Below, piece after piece: positions 863 through 8,779 of a stretch of 64,000 nucleotides of DNA. The notes under the pieces are model-generated. The model was not told the origin of the DNA, searched no databases, and was given only the letters and a program-made list of their open reading frames with translations. How positions within the stretch are numbered: the first letter of the stretch is position 1; the number at the start of each line of letters is the position of its first letter. Source of the DNA: Minisyncoccota bacterium (GTDB lineage: Bacteria > Patescibacteriota > Minisyncoccia > UBA6257 > UBA9933). The stretch lies in assembly GCA_041653755.1 (NCBI GenBank), contig JBAZEU010000001.1:1398-65397 (forward strand). Direction: 5' to 3'. The position numbers and the translations under genes were made by a program.

Positions 863-2056
863 ATGTATGATAATGTCGTAGCCCAAGAAATTTCTCGGAA
901 ATATAGGCAAACGCCGTTGGTAAATTTTGCCGGTGTCAGCCAATATACAAAGCTCCAAGATTTGAACTTAAACTGGAGAGAAAGAGATTTACCGGAACGA
1001 GCAAGAACAAAACATGTTCACAGATTACACCCGTACATGGGGAAGTTTATTCCACAGCTCGTGGAAATCTTTTTGCGAAAATATCAACCCCGCTTGGTTT
1101 ACGACCCGTTTTGCGGTTCTGGTACAACATTGGTAGAAGCGAACGCCCTCGGCATCGATTCAATTGGCACCGATATTTCCGCTTTTAACATATTGCTTTC
1201 AAAAGTAAAAACCGACGAATACAATTTTCCTTTACTGGAAAAGGAATTATACGAAATCTTAAGAAGGTTCTGCGAATACAAAAACAAATTTTCAAAAAAT
1301 AAAGGAGTTGATAAATTATTTCAAACAAAAAACGAATACATAAAAACTTGGTTTGCGCCTAACACCCAAAAAGAATTACTTTGTTATTTGAAACTCATCA
1401 AAGATTATACCTATCAAGATTTGTTAAGAATAATCTTGTCACGGTCCGCTCGGTCCGCCCGTTTGGTTACTCACTTTGACTTAGATTTTCCCAAAAAACC
1501 GCAAATCACCCCGTATCAATGCTATAAACACGGGCGAATATGCAAGCCGACCGAAGAGGCATACAAATTCCTAAATCGTTATACAATAGATACTCTTCGA
1601 CGAATAAAGGAATTTTCGCGAATAAGAACAAAGGCGAAAGTCGTTCTTAGTAACGATGATTCTCGATCCCTCAATCTTCCCAAAGGAATCGACATGGTTT
1701 TCACCTCTCCGCCTTATCTTGGTTTAATTGATTACCATGAACAGCATAAATATGCTTACGAACTTCTTGGATTGAAAAACAACGAGACGCGTGAAATTGG
1801 AGCGGCGAAAAACGGCCATTCAGATAAAGCAAAACAAGATTATATTAAAGGTATAAACGATGTCTTATTGCATACGCGTGATTATATGGCTAAAGACGGA
1901 TTGGCAATCATTGTCGTAAACGATAAATTTGGTTTGTACAAGCCTGAAGCTACAGGGTTTAAGGCAATCGGCCGAGTCGAAAGACATGTCAATCGTCGAA
2001 CCGGCAGAAGAAAGGGCGCATTTTACGAGAGCATCCTAATTTGGAAAAAAATATGA
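863..2056 (+). CDS. DNA amino-methyltransferase (N6-adenine or N4-cytosine), alpha-class motif order.
   Basis: AdoMet motif I is DPFCGSGTT near aa 80. Catalytic motif IV is FTSPPY near aa 280. The roughly 200-aa spacing suggests a target-recognition domain between them. Confidence 0.8.
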   Translation: MYDNVVAQEISRKYRQTPLVNFAGVSQYTKLQDLNLNWRERDLPERARTKHVHRLHPYMGKFIPQLVEIFLRKYQPRLVYDPFCGSGTTLVEANALGIDSIGTDISAFNILLSKVKTDEYNFPLLEKELYEILRRFCEYKNKFSKNKGVDKLFQTKNEYIKTWFAPNTQKELLCYLKLIKDYTYQDLLRIILSRSARSARLVTHFDLDFPKKPQITPYQCYKHGRICKPTEEAYKFLNRYTIDTLRRIKEFSRIRTKAKVVLSNDDSRSLNLPKGIDMVFTSPPYLGLIDYHEQHKYAYELLGLKNNETREIGAAKNGHSDKAKQDYIKGINDVLLHTRDYMAKDGLAIIVVNDKFGLYKPEATGFKAIGRVERHVNRRTGRRKGAFYESILIWKKI

Positions 2057-2889
2057 CAAAAGAACAAGAAATGAAGGAAGCCATCCAATCTGTCGTTAAG
2101 CTGATGATGAATAGGGTTATGCAAAAAGTTTTAGTGGAGGATCCGTTCATAAAAGAAGAACATAAAGCTAAAAAACCGCTGTATGCCGCTTTAGTTCCAG
2201 ATGAAATATTTAAAGGGGCGCATTTCGAAAGACGCTTTGTCACTCCTTTCGGTGGTGTCTGGGAGAAACTCGCTATTGTGGCTGCAAACAAAGGTCTTGG
2301 ATATGGAGTAAAGGAGCATAGTATTACAGGAACGGTAAATTCTGAACGGTTAAGAAGAATACAAGAAATTTTAAATAATTTGGAACATTCAGAAAAGGGA
2401 AAGAAAAAGATTAGACCGAATTGGGATAGCGAACTCAAATATATCATGGAAGGTAAAAGCGAGAAAGTTATGCCAACTACCGTTATTTGCGATGTGTACG
2501 CCGAAGATAGAAAAAATGACAAAAAATATGCCTTTGAGTTAAAAGCTCCGCTACCAAATAGTGATCAAACGAAAGTAAGTAAAGAAAAAATTCTCAAGCT
2601 ATACAGCATGGAACCAAGACAAATTGATGAGGCTTATTATGCCTTACCATACAACCCTTTCGGAAAAAGAGAAAACTATTCCTGGAGTTTTCCTGCAAGA
2701 TGGTTTGATATGAAAAATGACAAAGCGGTGTTAATTGGAAATGAATTCTGGGAAAAAATCGGAGGGCTTGGGACATATAAAGCTTTTATTGATGCAATAA
2801 ATGAAATAGGCAAGGAATATAAGGACCGAATTTACAGAGAATTTTTGGGTATTGAACCACCGTCTGATATAGATGCGGATAAGTTGTAA
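2041..2889 (+). CDS. Putative type II restriction endonuclease with a PD-(D/E)xK core, cognate to the upstream methyltransferase.
   Basis: It overlaps the methyltransferase stop by 16 nt, implying translational coupling. Motif VICDVYAED...YAFELKAP fits D...ExK. The rest is unique sequence typical of REases. Confidence 0.5.
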   Translation: MEKNMTKEQEMKEAIQSVVKLMMNRVMQKVLVEDPFIKEEHKAKKPLYAALVPDEIFKGAHFERRFVTPFGGVWEKLAIVAANKGLGYGVKEHSITGTVNSERLRRIQEILNNLEHSEKGKKKIRPNWDSELKYIMEGKSEKVMPTTVICDVYAEDRKNDKKYAFELKAPLPNSDQTKVSKEKILKLYSMEPRQIDEAYYALPYNPFGKRENYSWSFPARWFDMKNDKAVLIGNEFWEKIGGLGTYKAFIDAINEIGKEYKDRIYREFLGIEPPSDIDADKL

Positions 2890-2899
2890 TTTAATATGT

Positions 2900-3682
2900 A
2901 TGGAACCTTTTAAACTACCGGCTCTTGAATCTCTTGCGAAAATCGTCGGTGATCGTTATTCAGGAACAGGAATATCGGAATTTTTTCGTAAAGCAGGTTT
3001 TCCTGACGTTGTTCATGACGGTGGTACAAAATGGCGATTTGTGTACGCTTCCCTTGAAAATCTACAGAATCGGGCTTATGGCCCTATTAACGTGGTAAAA
3101 GTAATTCAACAGTTGTGCGATCCTCAGGAGTATTTTTCAACACCAGATCAACATACGGAAATCTGTGACCAAGTCAATCAGATTCTCGGGTTTTATGGAT
3201 TGCTGGTTGGCGAAGATGGTCGAGTGAGAAAACTTGATGAAAAAGTTACATCGCTTTCAAAGCCTATACCGGAGAATGCAAAAATATTTGATAGCCGTCA
3301 GTTTCACTCCACAATTATTTGCCACGCCCGCAAATTATTCGTCGAAGGTAATTATTTTCACGCCATTTTTGAGTGTTGTAAAGTATATGATAAAGAAGTG
3401 CAAAACAAGTCCCAGATGTCTGGCTATGGATCAAGGCTAATGGAGGAAGCTCTTTCTCTTTCGGGGTCACTTAAACTAAATACTCAACGAACCAGAACAG
3501 AAGTTAATGAGCAAGAAGGTGTTATGCATCTTTCGGTTGGTTTGATGAGGGCTATTAGAAATCCTCAAGCTCATGAACCTGCTCTTGATTGGCCAATCAA
3601 TCGAGAAGAGGCGTTGGATTTACTTTCTTTTTTGAATTTCCTATTTCGAAAATTTGATAAGGTAACATACTTTAAACAATAA
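2900..3682 (+). CDS. HEPN-domain protein (TIGR02391/Ymh-like or Abi-like), a predicted RNase. The start may be the upstream ATG at 2873.
   Basis: A C-terminal Rx4H motif (AIRNPQAHEP) sits at aa 229-234 of the 269-aa ORF. The gene overlaps the REase stop. Confidence 0.55.
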   Translation: MEPFKLPALESLAKIVGDRYSGTGISEFFRKAGFPDVVHDGGTKWRFVYASLENLQNRAYGPINVVKVIQQLCDPQEYFSTPDQHTEICDQVNQILGFYGLLVGEDGRVRKLDEKVTSLSKPIPENAKIFDSRQFHSTIICHARKLFVEGNYFHAIFECCKVYDKEVQNKSQMSGYGSRLMEEALSLSGSLKLNTQRTRTEVNEQEGVMHLSVGLMRAIRNPQAHEPALDWPINREEALDLLSFLNFLFRKFDKVTYFKQ

Positions 3683-3686
3683 ATTT

Positions 3687-6560
3687 ATGAGTACTCCATA
3701 TCCAAAAGGTTCGGAATGGCGAAAATGGGATTTACATGTCCACACACCTTCGTCTGCTTTAGCTCATACCTTGGGTAGCGATTGGGATGGATATGTCAAC
3801 CAACTTATTGATGCTATAAAAAAACACCAGATAGCCGCGATTGCTACCGCTGATTATTTTACAATTGAGGGATACAAAAAGCTGCTTGAATATTACAGTA
3901 AAGACACATGTACGCTCTCCGCAAATAGCAAAAGCGTTCAATGTTATTTGATCCCTGGCATAGAATTACGACTCAACATCTTCAACAGCGAAGAAGAATC
4001 TATAAACTTACATATATTCTTTGATCCAGAATGTTGTTCGAGCGAATTCATTACCCAAAATTTCCTTGAAGCATTAAACATCGTTTATAGGGGATCGGAA
4101 GTATTGCTGAAACAACAGAACCTTTTGGCAATTGGAAAGAGCATTGCCGATAATACACCGGCAGATTTTGGCCAGAGTTTTGGCGCATGCAGCGAAGCCA
4201 CAAAAGATGAATATATTAGAAAAGCACTTGGAGCAATAACCTTAAACTATACCAATATCGATGACGCACTTAAAGGTATTGATAAAATATTTGAAAAACA
4301 AAATCTCCCACCAAAAGCTTATTTAATCGCAGTCGTTGGTAAGGGACACGGTGGTATCAGATCGCTTAAATGGTTTGAAGACAATAAAAGTTTCTCTCGC
4401 GCTGGACTTATCAGAGAACATTTGACCTACCAAACAGATGCCATTTTTTCGAATGATCAGAACGATAGGAATTTCTACCTTGGCAGACGGGAAGATGCTC
4501 CCGCAACGGAGATTCAAAATAGGTTTGATAATCTCAAGCCGTGCATTTGGGGTTCTGATAGTCACTCTCTTGATAAATTACTTCATCCATCTAATGGCAA
4601 TACATTGGATTATACGTGGATCAAGGCGGAGATTTCCTTTGAGGGATTTAAGCAAATTACTTACGAACCAGAGCTGAGGGTAAGGGTTCAGCAAGATAAT
4701 CCAGTTGAAGAAGAAGCTTATGCAAAGATCGAAAAACTGGAATTAGATTTCCCGGATGATCTGAAAATCAAAGACAAAGAATCCGAAGAGGCGATATCCT
4801 TTTGTATTCAAGGCAAACAGGAGGTAAACTTTTCATCAAATTTGACATGTATTATTGGTGGGAGAGGATCGGGTAAAAGTACCTTGGTTCATATCCTTTA
4901 TAACCTTGTTCCAAAAAGAGACGCTGACCGACTTTCTAAAGTCAGTTCCCCTTTGTTCAATTTACAACTTGGGTCGAAAGATGAGCTAGGAAAAATTCGT
5001 TCCCAAACTAAATCTAACATACCATCGAGCACAGAATTTTTCTTACAAAATGAGGTTGAAAAATTCGCAAAAGATGTTAGTGAAATGTCTATCCTAATCA
5101 AGACTCGCCTTTACGGTTTATCTGCCATTGATGATGGACAAAAAAATCTTCAAGAAATTGAAAGTGAGTGGCAAGATACTGCCATAGGAATGGAGGAATT
5201 GATTTCCGCCTATGATGAAATCACAAGGATTGATCAACAAATAGTTTTGGTCGTTAAGCAAAAAGATACATTAAAAAAACAGACCGATGTTATCAGCTCA
5301 AAAGATTATAAAAAACTCCAGAAAGAAATTGAAGAAATAGCTAATGCCATCAGTGCTTTTGATACCTACGAAAAAGAATACAGACGATTGTCGCTTGAGA
5401 TATTGACGCTTATAAAAAGCATCGCCAGGCTCGATTGGACTAAATATGAAGGCCAGTCTATTTTGGTTTCCCTATCCGCCGAACTTGATAAAAAGAAAGC
5501 CGAGATTCAAACATTTTTTGAAGAAACAAACAAAAAATATGTTACCGCAGATTACGCAACTAAATTAGGCGATAAAAAAACGCAACTAAAAAACTTCTTG
5601 AAAGAAAAGGGCCTTTCTCCGGAAAATATTGGAGAAATAGCCACCGCTACGCAGCAAATTGCTGAGTTGGATGAACAAATAAAGATTCTGAGGCAGGAAA
5701 GAATACCACACCAAGAAATCTATGACAGTAAAGAAGGGACACTTCAAACATATAGAGAGGCGTACGCTTCTTACAAAGGAGTGTTCGAATCAGTAGCGAA
5801 TAAGCTTCAATCAAATTTAAGTAATCTTAAATTTGACGGCGAAGAGACAAACATTTCTTTTCAATTTAAGACTAATGATCAATTACTAAAAGACGGAGTT
5901 GCTGATTTTATTAAAAGCCATAACACTTCAAGAATTAATTTAAGAGCCGATAACATTCAAAATGTTTTATTTGGGAATAATGATGTACCCTTTTCAGCTA
6001 TAGTCTCTGATCAATTAAAGATAGTGGCGGCCGTAAATAGTTCAGAGGTGGCCGATGCCCACACTCAAATTATTAGGGATCTAATAGGCGACCCAACTTT
6101 TGTTGAAAAACTTTACTTGCGGATGCAACGATACCACTTTGACATCGAAAACGTCCAAGTGCAAACAAAACTTGGCGAGAAATTTTTACAAAACACGTCG
6201 TTTGGCGAGAGATGTGGAATCGTAATTGCTATTGTTCTTGTTGCCGGAACAAATCCTATAGTAATTGACCAACCAGAGGATAATCTGGACGGGAAATATA
6301 TTTCGAAAGTTCTTGTTCCTTTAATCCGTACTCAAAAACATAAACGCCAAATTGTACTTGTTACAAGAGATGCAAATATTGTAATTGGTGGCGATTCAGA
6401 ACTGATATTAATTCTTGATAAAGAAAACCATGGTTCAGTATTACTGCCTGCAACTATCGAGAATAAAGTTATTCGATCCAAATATATTTGGATTCTAGAC
6501 GGTGGCGAAAGAGCATTCAAAGCTCGTGAAGCAAAATACTGTATTCACAAAGCAGCATAA
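3687..6560 (+). CDS. PHP phosphoesterase fused to an SMC/Rad50/SbcC-like ABC ATPase with a long coiled coil. From memory, possibly the TrlF-family architecture.
   Basis: PHP motifs are WDLHVHTPSS, GIELR, NLHIFF and WGSDSH in the N-terminal ~330 aa. Walker A is IIGGRGSGKST at aa 391-399. A coiled-coil-like charged region spans about aa 430-800. Signature-like SFGERCG lies at aa 838-844, Walker B/D-loop VIDQPEDNLD at about aa 860, and H-loop-like VLVTRD near aa 890. Confidence 0.75.
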   Translation: MSTPYPKGSEWRKWDLHVHTPSSALAHTLGSDWDGYVNQLIDAIKKHQIAAIATADYFTIEGYKKLLEYYSKDTCTLSANSKSVQCYLIPGIELRLNIFNSEEESINLHIFFDPECCSSEFITQNFLEALNIVYRGSEVLLKQQNLLAIGKSIADNTPADFGQSFGACSEATKDEYIRKALGAITLNYTNIDDALKGIDKIFEKQNLPPKAYLIAVVGKGHGGIRSLKWFEDNKSFSRAGLIREHLTYQTDAIFSNDQNDRNFYLGRREDAPATEIQNRFDNLKPCIWGSDSHSLDKLLHPSNGNTLDYTWIKAEISFEGFKQITYEPELRVRVQQDNPVEEEAYAKIEKLELDFPDDLKIKDKESEEAISFCIQGKQEVNFSSNLTCIIGGRGSGKSTLVHILYNLVPKRDADRLSKVSSPLFNLQLGSKDELGKIRSQTKSNIPSSTEFFLQNEVEKFAKDVSEMSILIKTRLYGLSAIDDGQKNLQEIESEWQDTAIGMEELISAYDEITRIDQQIVLVVKQKDTLKKQTDVISSKDYKKLQKEIEEIANAISAFDTYEKEYRRLSLEILTLIKSIARLDWTKYEGQSILVSLSAELDKKKAEIQTFFEETNKKYVTADYATKLGDKKTQLKNFLKEKGLSPENIGEIATATQQIAELDEQIKILRQERIPHQEIYDSKEGTLQTYREAYASYKGVFESVANKLQSNLSNLKFDGEETNISFQFKTNDQLLKDGVADFIKSHNTSRINLRADNIQNVLFGNNDVPFSAIVSDQLKIVAAVNSSEVADAHTQIIRDLIGDPTFVEKLYLRMQRYHFDIENVQVQTKLGEKFLQNTSFGERCGIVIAIVLVAGTNPIVIDQPEDNLDGKYISKVLVPLIRTQKHKRQIVLVTRDANIVIGGDSELILILDKENHGSVLLPATIENKVIRSKYIWILDGGERAFKAREAKYCIHKAA

Positions 6561-6708: not shown

Positions 6709-8241
6709 ATGAATTTTTCTAAATCACGCAAAGGTTTCACCCTCATAGAACTTCTAATCGTGATAGGTATCGTAGCAGTTCTAGCCGTCGTCGTCTTAAC
6801 AGTTCTCAATCCAGTGGAATTCCTCAAAAAAAGCAGGGACTCTAGGCGTATGGTAGACCTCCAGACCTTGGATAAAGCCCTAAGGTTAGCTGATTTTGAC
6901 AATATCTCCATGGGAACAGCCAATGTGGTATATGTTTCCATCCCTGATGACACAGCAGCCACCTCAACCTGTCCTACCCTATCCTTACCAGCTTTACCAG
7001 GAGGCTGGACTTATCAATGCTCTAATACTACTAACTACCGAAAAGCTGACGGTACTGGCTGGGTACCTGTTAACTTCACCTCTCTTACCACAGTTCCCAA
7101 TCCTTTAACCTTACTACCAGTTGATCCCACCAACAGTACTTCCACCAATCTCTACTATTCATATGTCTCTGGTAGTTGGGAACTTACTGCCTTATTTGAA
7201 ACCACTGGTTACCAAACCAAATACGCAGCCAGCGACAATGGCACTTCCACTGTCCTATTTGAAGTGGGCAACCATCTTAAGATTACCCCTAATGCGGTAG
7301 CTTCAAGGACTAATACCGGAGGAGGGGGAGGCGGAAGTTCCTACACCTTAACCTTTAATACCAGTCCTACTTATTCAGGTTCGGTTACCTTTGACGGTTC
7401 TTCCTACGCCAATGGCGATACTGCTTCCAAATCTTCAGGTTCTTACAATATTTCTGGCACCCCTGGTTCAGGCCGATCCTTTTCCTACTGGTCTCCTACA
7501 GGGATGACTGTCACTGACACCAGTACCTTAAGCACTTCTGCCACTGTCTCAGGCGCTGGCAGTTTATCCATGATTCAGGTTCCTGACTCATACACCAAAT
7601 TACTCCTACATATGGATGGGACGAATGGGTCAACTAGTTTCCCTGATAGTTCTACCGCGGCCCATACGGTTACAGCTAATGGAACCGCCCAAGTAACTAC
7701 TGCCCAACAAAAATTTGGGACAGGATCGGTTCAATGTAATGGAAGTGGTAATTATCTTACTTCTGCTGATAGTGATGATTGGTATTTTGGTACCAATGAT
7801 TTTACAGTTGATTTTTGGGCAAGAAATACAGGCGGAACTAATGTGTATTTAGTTAATCAATGGCACATTAACAGCGGTGGTGTAAGTATGAGTTGGGCTA
7901 TTCTTTGGAATAGTAGCAACGGAGTGCTTATTTTACTTAGAGATCATCCTGGAGCTTGGAATGATTTTAATCAATACAATACTAGTGGGATAACTATGTC
8001 TAGTAATACTTGGTACCATATAGCATTAGTAAGATACAACAACTATGTAGATATTTATGTTAACGGTACGTCTTACTTACACCAGGCTTATTCTCTTTCT
8101 CTCCAAAACAGTGACATGAATTTGGGTATTTGTGATTATATGGGAGCCCAAGGATTTACTGGGCAAATAGATGAAGTTCGTATTTCTAAAGGTATAGCTC
8201 GTTGGACTTCAAACTTTACTCCGCCAACAGCGCCGTATTAA
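6709..8241 (+). CDS. Type IV pilin-like protein (class III signal peptide) with a large S/T/G-rich body and a C-terminal LamG-like lectin domain.
   Basis: The N-terminus SRKG|FTLIELLIVIGIVAVLA carries a prepilin cleavage/methylation motif with E at +5. The C-terminal approx 200 aa (LLLHMDG...FTVDFWAR...RISKGIARWTSNFTPPTAPY) is a concanavalin/LamG_3-like jellyroll and is paralogous to the C-terminus of the 55820 ORF. Confidence 0.7.
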   Translation: MNFSKSRKGFTLIELLIVIGIVAVLAVVVLTVLNPVEFLKKSRDSRRMVDLQTLDKALRLADFDNISMGTANVVYVSIPDDTAATSTCPTLSLPALPGGWTYQCSNTTNYRKADGTGWVPVNFTSLTTVPNPLTLLPVDPTNSTSTNLYYSYVSGSWELTALFETTGYQTKYAASDNGTSTVLFEVGNHLKITPNAVASRTNTGGGGGGSSYTLTFNTSPTYSGSVTFDGSSYANGDTASKSSGSYNISGTPGSGRSFSYWSPTGMTVTDTSTLSTSATVSGAGSLSMIQVPDSYTKLLLHMDGTNGSTSFPDSSTAAHTVTANGTAQVTTAQQKFGTGSVQCNGSGNYLTSADSDDWYFGTNDFTVDFWARNTGGTNVYLVNQWHINSGGVSMSWAILWNSSNGVLILLRDHPGAWNDFNQYNTSGITMSSNTWYHIALVRYNNYVDIYVNGTSYLHQAYSLSLQNSDMNLGICDYMGAQGFTGQIDEVRISKGIARWTSNFTPPTAPY

Positions 8242-8290: not shown

Positions 8291-8779
8291 ATGTCTCAAA
8301 ACTGGCAATATTTATTTAAAATTGCATACACCAAAGCACAAGAAAGCACTAATCCGTCTACCCAGAACGGAGCTATCCTGATTGACGATAATGGGAACAT
8401 TGTTCTTTCTGCAATCAATAGTTTCCCTGATGGAGTAATAGAAACACAAGAACGGCGAAAGAAACTCTTACGTTATAAATTCAGTGTACACGCAGAACGA
8501 AACGTACTTTACCAAGCCGCACTTCTTGGAATAAAGACAAAAGGGCTTACTATGGTATGTCCGTGGGCGGCATGCAGTGATTGCGCCCAGGCCATAATTC
8601 AAACAGGCATCAGAAGATTGGTAACTCATAAACAAGCTCTTGATAGATCTGATACATGGCAAGAGGACATAGAGCTTGCTTTTATAATGCTTCGCGAAGC
8701 CGGAGTTGAAATTATTATTTTCGACGGAAAGATAGGAGTAGGTAAAATTTTGCGAAGTGGAGAAGTTTGGGAACCATAA
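8291..8779 (+). CDS. dCMP/cytidine deaminase family protein (ComEB-like).
   Basis: Zinc-binding motifs are present: HAE (VHAERN) and PCxxC-like CPWAACSDC. Confidence 0.65.
   Translation: MSQNWQYLFKIAYTKAQESTNPSTQNGAILIDDNGNIVLSAINSFPDGVIETQERRKKLLRYKFSVHAERNVLYQAALLGIKTKGLTMVCPWAACSDCAQAIIQTGIRRLVTHKQALDRSDTWQEDIELAFIMLREAGVEIIIFDGKIGVGKILRSGEVWEP

Follow-up and report, generated by a model that had tools for sequence, protein, structure and literature searches.

The window analyzed here, a 64,000-nucleotide stretch of DNA from a member of the Paceibacterota, raises the question of what a gene for a putative HEPN ribonuclease is doing inside a restriction-modification (R-M) cluster, and whether its product acts on its own, under the control of the R-M proteins, or together with the large ATPase encoded immediately downstream. 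The gene (2900..3682, + strand) codes for a two-domain, 260-residue protein of the TIGR02391/Ymh HEPN family, an assignment drawn from the ORF list, PF09509, TIGR02391, PADLOC and NCBI. It is the third of four co-oriented genes, in which a Type II DNA methyltransferase of the N6_N4 class comes first (863..2056, +; PF01555 E=8.5e-13, PADLOC MTase_II E=3.6e-93), followed by a TdeIII/HinfI-family Type II restriction endonuclease (2053..2889, +; PF09520 E=1.8e-74, PADLOC REase_II E=2.7e-43), the Ymh gene, and a 957-residue TrlF-family PHP-like/ABC (SMC-type) ATPase (3687..6560, +; NCBIfam NF045780 over its full length). The reading frame is thus real and lies between endonuclease and ATPase, as an earlier note on this DNA had described. 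The methyltransferase and endonuclease genes overlap by 4 nt (ATGA), and the two junctions that follow have gaps of 10 and 4 nt. A single promoter-like site (738-765) precedes the methyltransferase gene, the cluster contains no convincing terminator on the + strand, and no antitoxin is evident for the Ymh protein. Small-genome CPR bacteria (here the Paceibacterota) do therefore carry layered islands of R-M, HEPN and ATPase genes.

Several other genes lie close to this cluster. Upstream of it, the start of the window cuts a gene for a PD-(D/E)XK (PDDEXK_1) nuclease, of which the C-terminal part is present (23-493) and has a Cas4/AddB-like cysteine cluster. The region 6709-8241 encodes a 510-residue protein whose N-terminus resembles that of a type IV pilin (GFTLIELLIV...) and continues into a long body rich in Ser, Thr and Gly. 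The product of 8291-8779 has 162 residues and a signature, HAE...PCxxC, like that of cytidine/dCMP deaminases. Both descriptions are readings of the translations.

The open reading frame that ends at 3682 (+) has two possible in-frame starts, ATG at 2873 (269 aa) and ATG at 2900 (260 aa), and the choice between them bears on how closely the gene is tied to the endonuclease. The 2900 start is used by both the NCBI and Logan gene calls, the matching ATG is called in an independent assembly (L012), and it fits the N-termini of homologues (M-x-L-E-P-F-K-L) in an alignment of 25 homologues with 45-85% identity (alignment A1); an identical 260-residue protein is present in NCBI (P0001) as [quoted passage not shown]. 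Because this supported start comes 10 nt after the endonuclease stop codon (TAA, 2887-2889), the overlap of Ymh start and endonuclease stop that the earlier note reported is true of the 2873 start only, and the 'stoichiometric co-expression' with the endonuclease that it drew from the overlap is unsupported. The motif it had singled out, AIRNPQAHEP, is present at residues 227-236 of the 269-residue reading, but the accompanying numbering (R229/H234) belongs to the 2873 start rather than to the 2900 start that it quoted, from which the two residues are R220 and H225.

Profile searches make membership of the TIGR02391/Ymh family close to certain. The protein matches both family HMMs above their curated cut-offs, Pfam PF09509 (Hypoth_Ymh) at E=1.4e-31 and 109.3 bits (cut-off 25) across profile positions 1-118 of 119, and NCBIfam TIGR02391 at E=2.7e-21 and 75.9 bits (cut-off 39.45) across positions 2-123 of 125. 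These are the HEPN-clan hits whose lack had been named beforehand as the result that would count against a HEPN identity. A full-length match to the PADLOC model PD-Lambda-3_B (PDLC03987; E=6.1e-36, aa 10-265 against profile positions 4-264 of 270) extends the relationship across both domains, the Argonaute-associated HEPN model Aga_HEPN of PADLOC matches more weakly (E=7e-11), and a word-indexed search recovers 168 homologue clusters, all of which contain PF09509. The resemblance to Abi_2 families that had also been suggested is not borne out; a Pfam scan at E<=0.1 returns PF09509 and a sub-threshold Copine match only, and membership of Abi_2 (AbiD/AbiF) is rejected. Similarly, a HEPN-MNT (type VII) toxin-antitoxin is rejected, there being no nucleotidyltransferase-domain match in any flanking protein. 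Much of the family's background is already known: this exact protein is named in NCBI, and the HEPN assignment and R-M context of the family were published in 2013, when Ymh (PF09509) was entered among the HEPN families as one that conserves Rx4-6H and occurs 'in operon with R-M' (Anantharaman et al. 2013, PMC3710099).

The Ymh-type HEPN domain occupies 3296..3652 (+), corresponding to the Pfam match at residues 133-251 of the 260-residue protein, and includes the predicted catalytic Rx4H motif R-N-P-Q-A-H (3557..3574, +), with its arginine and histidine codons at nt 3557 and 3572. As read from the translation, R220-N221-P-Q-A-H225 has the Rx4-6H form with a polar residue (N, D or H) after the arginine that marks HEPN domains. 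A bare Rx4H motif is weak evidence by itself, as it occurs in 34% of shuffled versions of the protein (RNx3H in 1.8%); its significance here comes from the HMM matches and from its conservation. R220, N221, H225 and a glutamate, E158, are invariant in alignment A1, where the tail EALDLLSFLNFL pointed out in the earlier note is likewise conserved. R-N-x3-H is retained in 119 of the 120 listed homologue clusters and at 79 of 80 genome loci, the genes that lack it being truncated in both cases, and the conservation of Rx4H in orthologues on which the HEPN assignment had been staked is thus observed.

The predicted structure agrees with this assignment. The AlphaFold2 (AF2) model of the protein has a pLDDT of 89.5 and a pTM of 0.53, the latter of which fits two loosely packed domains. 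Its C-terminal half is wholly helical, and pLDDT exceeds 90 over most of the HEPN domain; the bundle consists of helices at residues 137-148, 152-171, 199-219 and 235-253 together with an insert at 177-185. R220...H225 follows directly on the third core helix (199-219) and precedes the last helix, and the invariant E158 lies in the second. In HEPN domains the motif comes where the third core helix ends, ahead of the last helix (PMC3710099), and the modeled layout of helices and motif corresponds to that arrangement. A sequence search of the PDB with the Ymh protein and the A1 profile as queries gave no match at E<=10.

A C-terminal four-helix HEPN domain with an invariant R-N-x3-H and helix-2 glutamate is most likely a metal-independent endoribonuclease, and by analogy with other HEPN RNases it probably works as a dimer. 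There are HEPN families that lack catalysis (PMC3710099), and literature and PDB searches found neither a solved structure nor a published RNase assay for any Ymh protein, so that the domain might instead be a non-catalytic, MtlR-like binder of RNA or nucleotides that regulates the expression or activity of the neighboring genes. Non-catalytic families have, however, lost the Rx4-6H motif, and because the active-site residues (arginine, the following asparagine, histidine and the helix-2 glutamate) are all invariant here we consider such a regulator highly improbable; the exchange of the N-terminal domain onto TIR and HNH toxins and the abortive phenotype of PD-lambda-3, both discussed below, also argue against it.

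If the Ymh domain is a latent endoribonuclease, what would control it? One candidate is the protein's own N-terminal half, a helical domain of about 124 residues (2900..3271, +) for which there is no Pfam model, which carries the motifs HDGGTKWRF and CDPQEYF and is strongly conserved in alignment A1. The earlier note read this region as alpha/beta; AF2 instead predicts six helices and one beta-hairpin (pLDDT ~90). When residues 1-124 were searched alone against 1.84 billion representatives there were 198 matches at E<=1e-3, in proteins of very varied lengths, and Pfam scans of 20 of these show that the domain is modular. TIR is the partner in nine of the 20, with a tenth (P0153) having a TIR-like match that is sub-threshold only, and HNH, HEPN_Swt1 and Abi_C, an AbiJ-type HEPN, occur once each. 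Where Ymh itself is the partner among the scanned proteins, two combine it with TPR repeats, one with a zinc ribbon and one with an N-terminal extension. Several other matches are only about 115-150 residues long, and their lengths suggest that they are stand-alone copies.

Swappable effectors are a pattern typical of conflict systems. Since the N-terminal domain is joined to varied effectors, the Ymh domain would be the toxic effector and the N-terminal domain a sensing, regulatory or adaptor module; and because its partners elsewhere are other cell-killing effectors (TIR, HNH and other HEPN domains), the protein is most likely a self-contained sensor-effector. The domain may correspond to AbiJ-NTD1, whose published description it fits; AbiJ-NTD1 is helical, has ~140 residues and occurs joined to effectors that include AbiJ, DUF4145 and Ymh (PMC3710099). 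The genomic contexts of two fusions of the N-terminal domain to TIR were inspected (n=2), one being on a contig too short to be informative and the other being without R-M genes.

The setting of the gene raises the alternative that control lies with the R-M proteins. Full-length homologues are repeatedly embedded in R-M operons of Types I, II and III. When Pfam-verified R-M proteins were used as phmmer probes, an R-M-like ORF was found within 5 kb at 18 of 30 loci encoding two-domain homologues versus 5 of 50 loci encoding the Ymh domain only; some of the 30 full-length loci are near-duplicates, and about 12 of 24 distinct contexts with R-M remain when this is allowed for. The gene orders are diverse. 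Type I arrangements include HsdM-HsdS-HsdR-Ymh in Bacillaceae, HsdM-HsdS-Ymh-x-GmrSD-HsdR in alphaproteobacteria and HsdR-Ymh-HsdS-x-HsdM in L029 and L033 (where x is an ORF between HsdS and HsdM), and there are Type III-like operons with the orders Mod-Ymh-Res (L007) and Res-x-Mod-Ymh (L034). Solo copies of Ymh occur in islands and on plasmids, the latter beside toxin-antitoxin pairs, and also in Streptococcus prophages, where they lie in the lysogeny module.

This distribution invites comparison with PrrC, in that the methyltransferase, the endonuclease or both could bind Ymh and hold the RNase inactive until a phage anti-restriction factor disables the R-M enzymes and frees it. The occurrence of homologues in R-M operons of three types, the placement of Ymh between hsdS and hsdR (L072, L073, L078 and L088, and L029 and L033) or between Mod and Res, the excess of R-M genes near full-length over domain-only loci, and the described PrrC/EcoprrI/Stp precedent (PMC3710099) are all in keeping with such a guard. 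The R-M partners nonetheless vary in type (I, II and III) and in family while Ymh stays 45-85% identical, which makes a specific protein-protein contact hard to picture; moreover, no R-M gene lies near roughly 40% of the full-length loci, nor near the copies in prophages and on plasmids, and the translational overlap with the endonuclease is unsupported. We therefore regard guarding by the R-M proteins as possible but rather doubtful, and the solo prophage and plasmid copies count towards the autonomy of Ymh, as expected of a self-contained sensor-effector.

Some of these loci have unusual features of their own. L072 (7771-8601), and also L073, L078 and L088, encode a conserved 276-residue protein with no Pfam match and a weak match to PADLOC PDC-S32 (E=1e-9), whose gene lies directly 3′ of, and overlaps, a PD-lambda-3_B-like Ymh gene; the pair is inside an HsdM-HsdS-...-GmrSD-HsdR operon, the HsdR of which has an N-terminal DUF4145, another HEPN family. 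In L031 (5543-7816) a single 757-residue ORF matches HsdR and a full-length Ymh protein, and is either a fusion of an HsdR fragment to Ymh or a frameshifted assembly. Two loci contain decayed Ymh genes: that of L015 (6962-7591; Saccharibacteria) ends before Rx4H and has genes for an SMC_N/AAA_23 ATPase and an SF1 helicase after it, and that of L030 (6968-7780) is split into two ORFs of 130 residues.

A third possibility is that control lies with the downstream ATPase. The predicted product matches the NCBIfam TrlF equivalog model NF045780 over its full length (404.5 bits, cut-off 350), with the Ppl and Spaf_1101 models matching below their cut-offs, and it has a PHP-like N-terminal motif, WDLHVHTP, that was read from the sequence, no Pfam PHP model having matched. 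Literature searches under the name 'TrlF' returned no paper on this ATPase family, only TRLFS spectroscopy and the trlF of tropolone biosynthesis. The same order, Ymh and then a PHP/ABC ATPase with a gap of 4-9 nt, is present in four CPR lineages, namely the window (Paceibacterota), WWE3 (L013), Vogelbacteria (L014) and Saccharibacteria (L016). The Ymh genes of the latter three are 72-77% identical to that of the window, whereas the four linked ATPases share only 22-26% identity with one another; the nearest relatives of each linked ATPase are Ymh-less, and the other linked ATPases rank 19th to 71st of 71. Because the linked ATPases are divergent and their nearest relatives lack Ymh, the pairing appears to have arisen several times, which could either hint at functional affinity or simply result from a shared preference for R-M-linked sites.

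These observations could be accounted for by a dedicated pair resembling an unfused PrrC or RloC, with the RNase turned on or off by an ATPase that detects phage DNA or damage to DNA. Its attraction lies in the repeated formation and constant spacing of the pair, and in the fusions of Ymh to paraMORC ATPases that have been proposed as PrrC/RloC analogues (PMC3710099). When the ATPases are taken as the starting point, however, none of 80 TrlF-like metagenome loci has a Ymh ORF within 4 kb, including the loci of the two ATPases most similar to that of the window (68% and 59% identity), and most Ymh homologues are without such an ATPase. Many TrlF-like genes, in addition, are independent insertions within R-M operons of Type I or III, as in the order HsdM-HsdS-TrlF-HsdR of L166 and L174, so the adjacency could reflect shared insertion sites. 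The TrlF ATPase is thus rejected as an obligate partner of Ymh, and we think a dedicated Ymh/TrlF switch unlikely. A relative with 59% identity to the window ATPase, in L097 (1190-3943), is preceded not by Ymh but by a 917-residue HmaC/DUF499 AAA+ protein (PADLOC HmaC E=3e-126); there is an overlap between DUF499 and an AAA+ ATPase to which a Swt1/Abi2-type HEPN is joined in some proteins (PMC3710099).

We return, then, to the reading that is best supported, in which the Ymh protein is a self-contained HEPN endoribonuclease, normally latent, that carries a sensor or regulator in its own N-terminal half and probably provides an abortive second line of defense within an R-M-linked island. The gene would be co-transcribed with the Type II R-M pair and the TrlF-type ATPase as part of a layered defense island, and the protein would remain silent until phage infection, with its N-terminal ~120-residue helical domain serving as a separate sensing or regulatory module. 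On infection it would cut host RNA, phage RNA or both, leading to growth arrest or abortive infection. The abortive second layer proposed in the earlier note accords with both the published model for these families (PMC3710099) and the behavior of PD-lambda-3, although the role itself, like the catalysis and its trigger, is something that we infer; RNase activity and an abortive role are each perhaps fairly probable for this protein.

The immediate value of these findings is modest, amounting to the correct annotation of a member of an already catalogued family, one homologue of which, PD-lambda-3 B, belongs to a validated abortive-infection system. Apart from the start overlap, the alpha/beta N-terminus and the Abi_2 resemblance, the interpretation given in the earlier note is supported. 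Two leads nonetheless emerge, namely an N-terminal module that exchanges effectors and shows enrichment in R-M operons, and the repeated pairing of Ymh with TrlF-type ATPases in CPR bacteria. A more ambitious reading, which we think improbable, is that the CPR Ymh-ATPase pair is a new two-component defense module, with a DNA-sensing ATPase gating the RNase and the N-terminal domain acting as a general toxin adaptor; if this were true, the N-terminal domain would be a means of plugging alternative toxins (HEPN, TIR, HNH) into R-M or ATPase sensors. A first study of the RNase or the trigger of any Ymh protein would fill a real gap, and would not require this particular gene.

How does the window protein compare with known systems? 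It differs in nothing essential from the Ymh/PF09509/TIGR02391 family at large, with which it shares an Rx4H motif with a polar asparagine after the arginine and a setting in an operon with R-M genes; its subfamily has the specific ~120-residue N-terminal domain that lies outside the Pfam and TIGRFAM models. Its neighbor belongs with the Ppl/TrlF/Spaf_1101 PHP-ABC ATPases, the C-terminal SMC/ABC head matching the anti-phage protein Ppl. TrlF-like genes in general are usually found without Ymh, a difference that concerns the neighbor and not the Ymh protein.

PrrC and RloC, in which an ABC ATPase and a HEPN domain are joined in one protein, act as anticodon nucleases. The window resembles them in having a HEPN RNase candidate, an SMC/ABC-type ATPase and R-M genes in one co-oriented cluster, and some Ymh relatives sit, as PrrC does, between hsdS and hsdR. 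It differs in that its ATPase and HEPN are encoded by separate ORFs, divided by a stop codon and a 4-nt gap, rather than as one polypeptide, and from PrrC in having a HEPN of the Ymh type and an R-M system of Type II rather than Type Ic. The likeness lies in the genes and in the logic of their grouping, and any anticodon-nuclease activity or regulation by R-M proteins in the window would be hypothetical.

The closest characterized relative is PD-lambda-3, a two-gene E. coli system from the screen of Vassallo et al. 2022 that behaves as an abortive-infection system, infected cells dying without a second round of infection (PMC13190303). Its A and B components were identified indirectly, through PADLOC matches at a locus on an E. 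coli IncHI1B plasmid (p22Q34-1, L179) that carries a near-exact PD-lambda-3 (A, 159 aa, E=2e-100; B, 267 aa, E=1e-179). With this B protein the window protein shares 30% identity over 252 residues (BLASTP E=4e-38), which is too low for it to be a PD-lambda-3 B orthologue. The partners also differ. PD-lambda-3 B has the 159-residue A protein directly upstream, whereas the window has the TdeIII endonuclease in that place and the TrlF ATPase downstream. An A-like partner in the window is rejected, as PADLOC finds no PD-Lambda-3_A match among the window proteins and the endonuclease has no similarity to A; in the absence of this component the window protein may act differently or require another partner. 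The two proteins nevertheless share full-length homology over both domains and the RNPxAH motif. On the plasmid (5500-11481) the A and B pair is followed by a co-oriented Mrr_cat nuclease (477 aa) and a 1040-residue protein and adjoins a BREX brxL gene, and the validated PD-lambda-3 pair may itself be part of a larger island.
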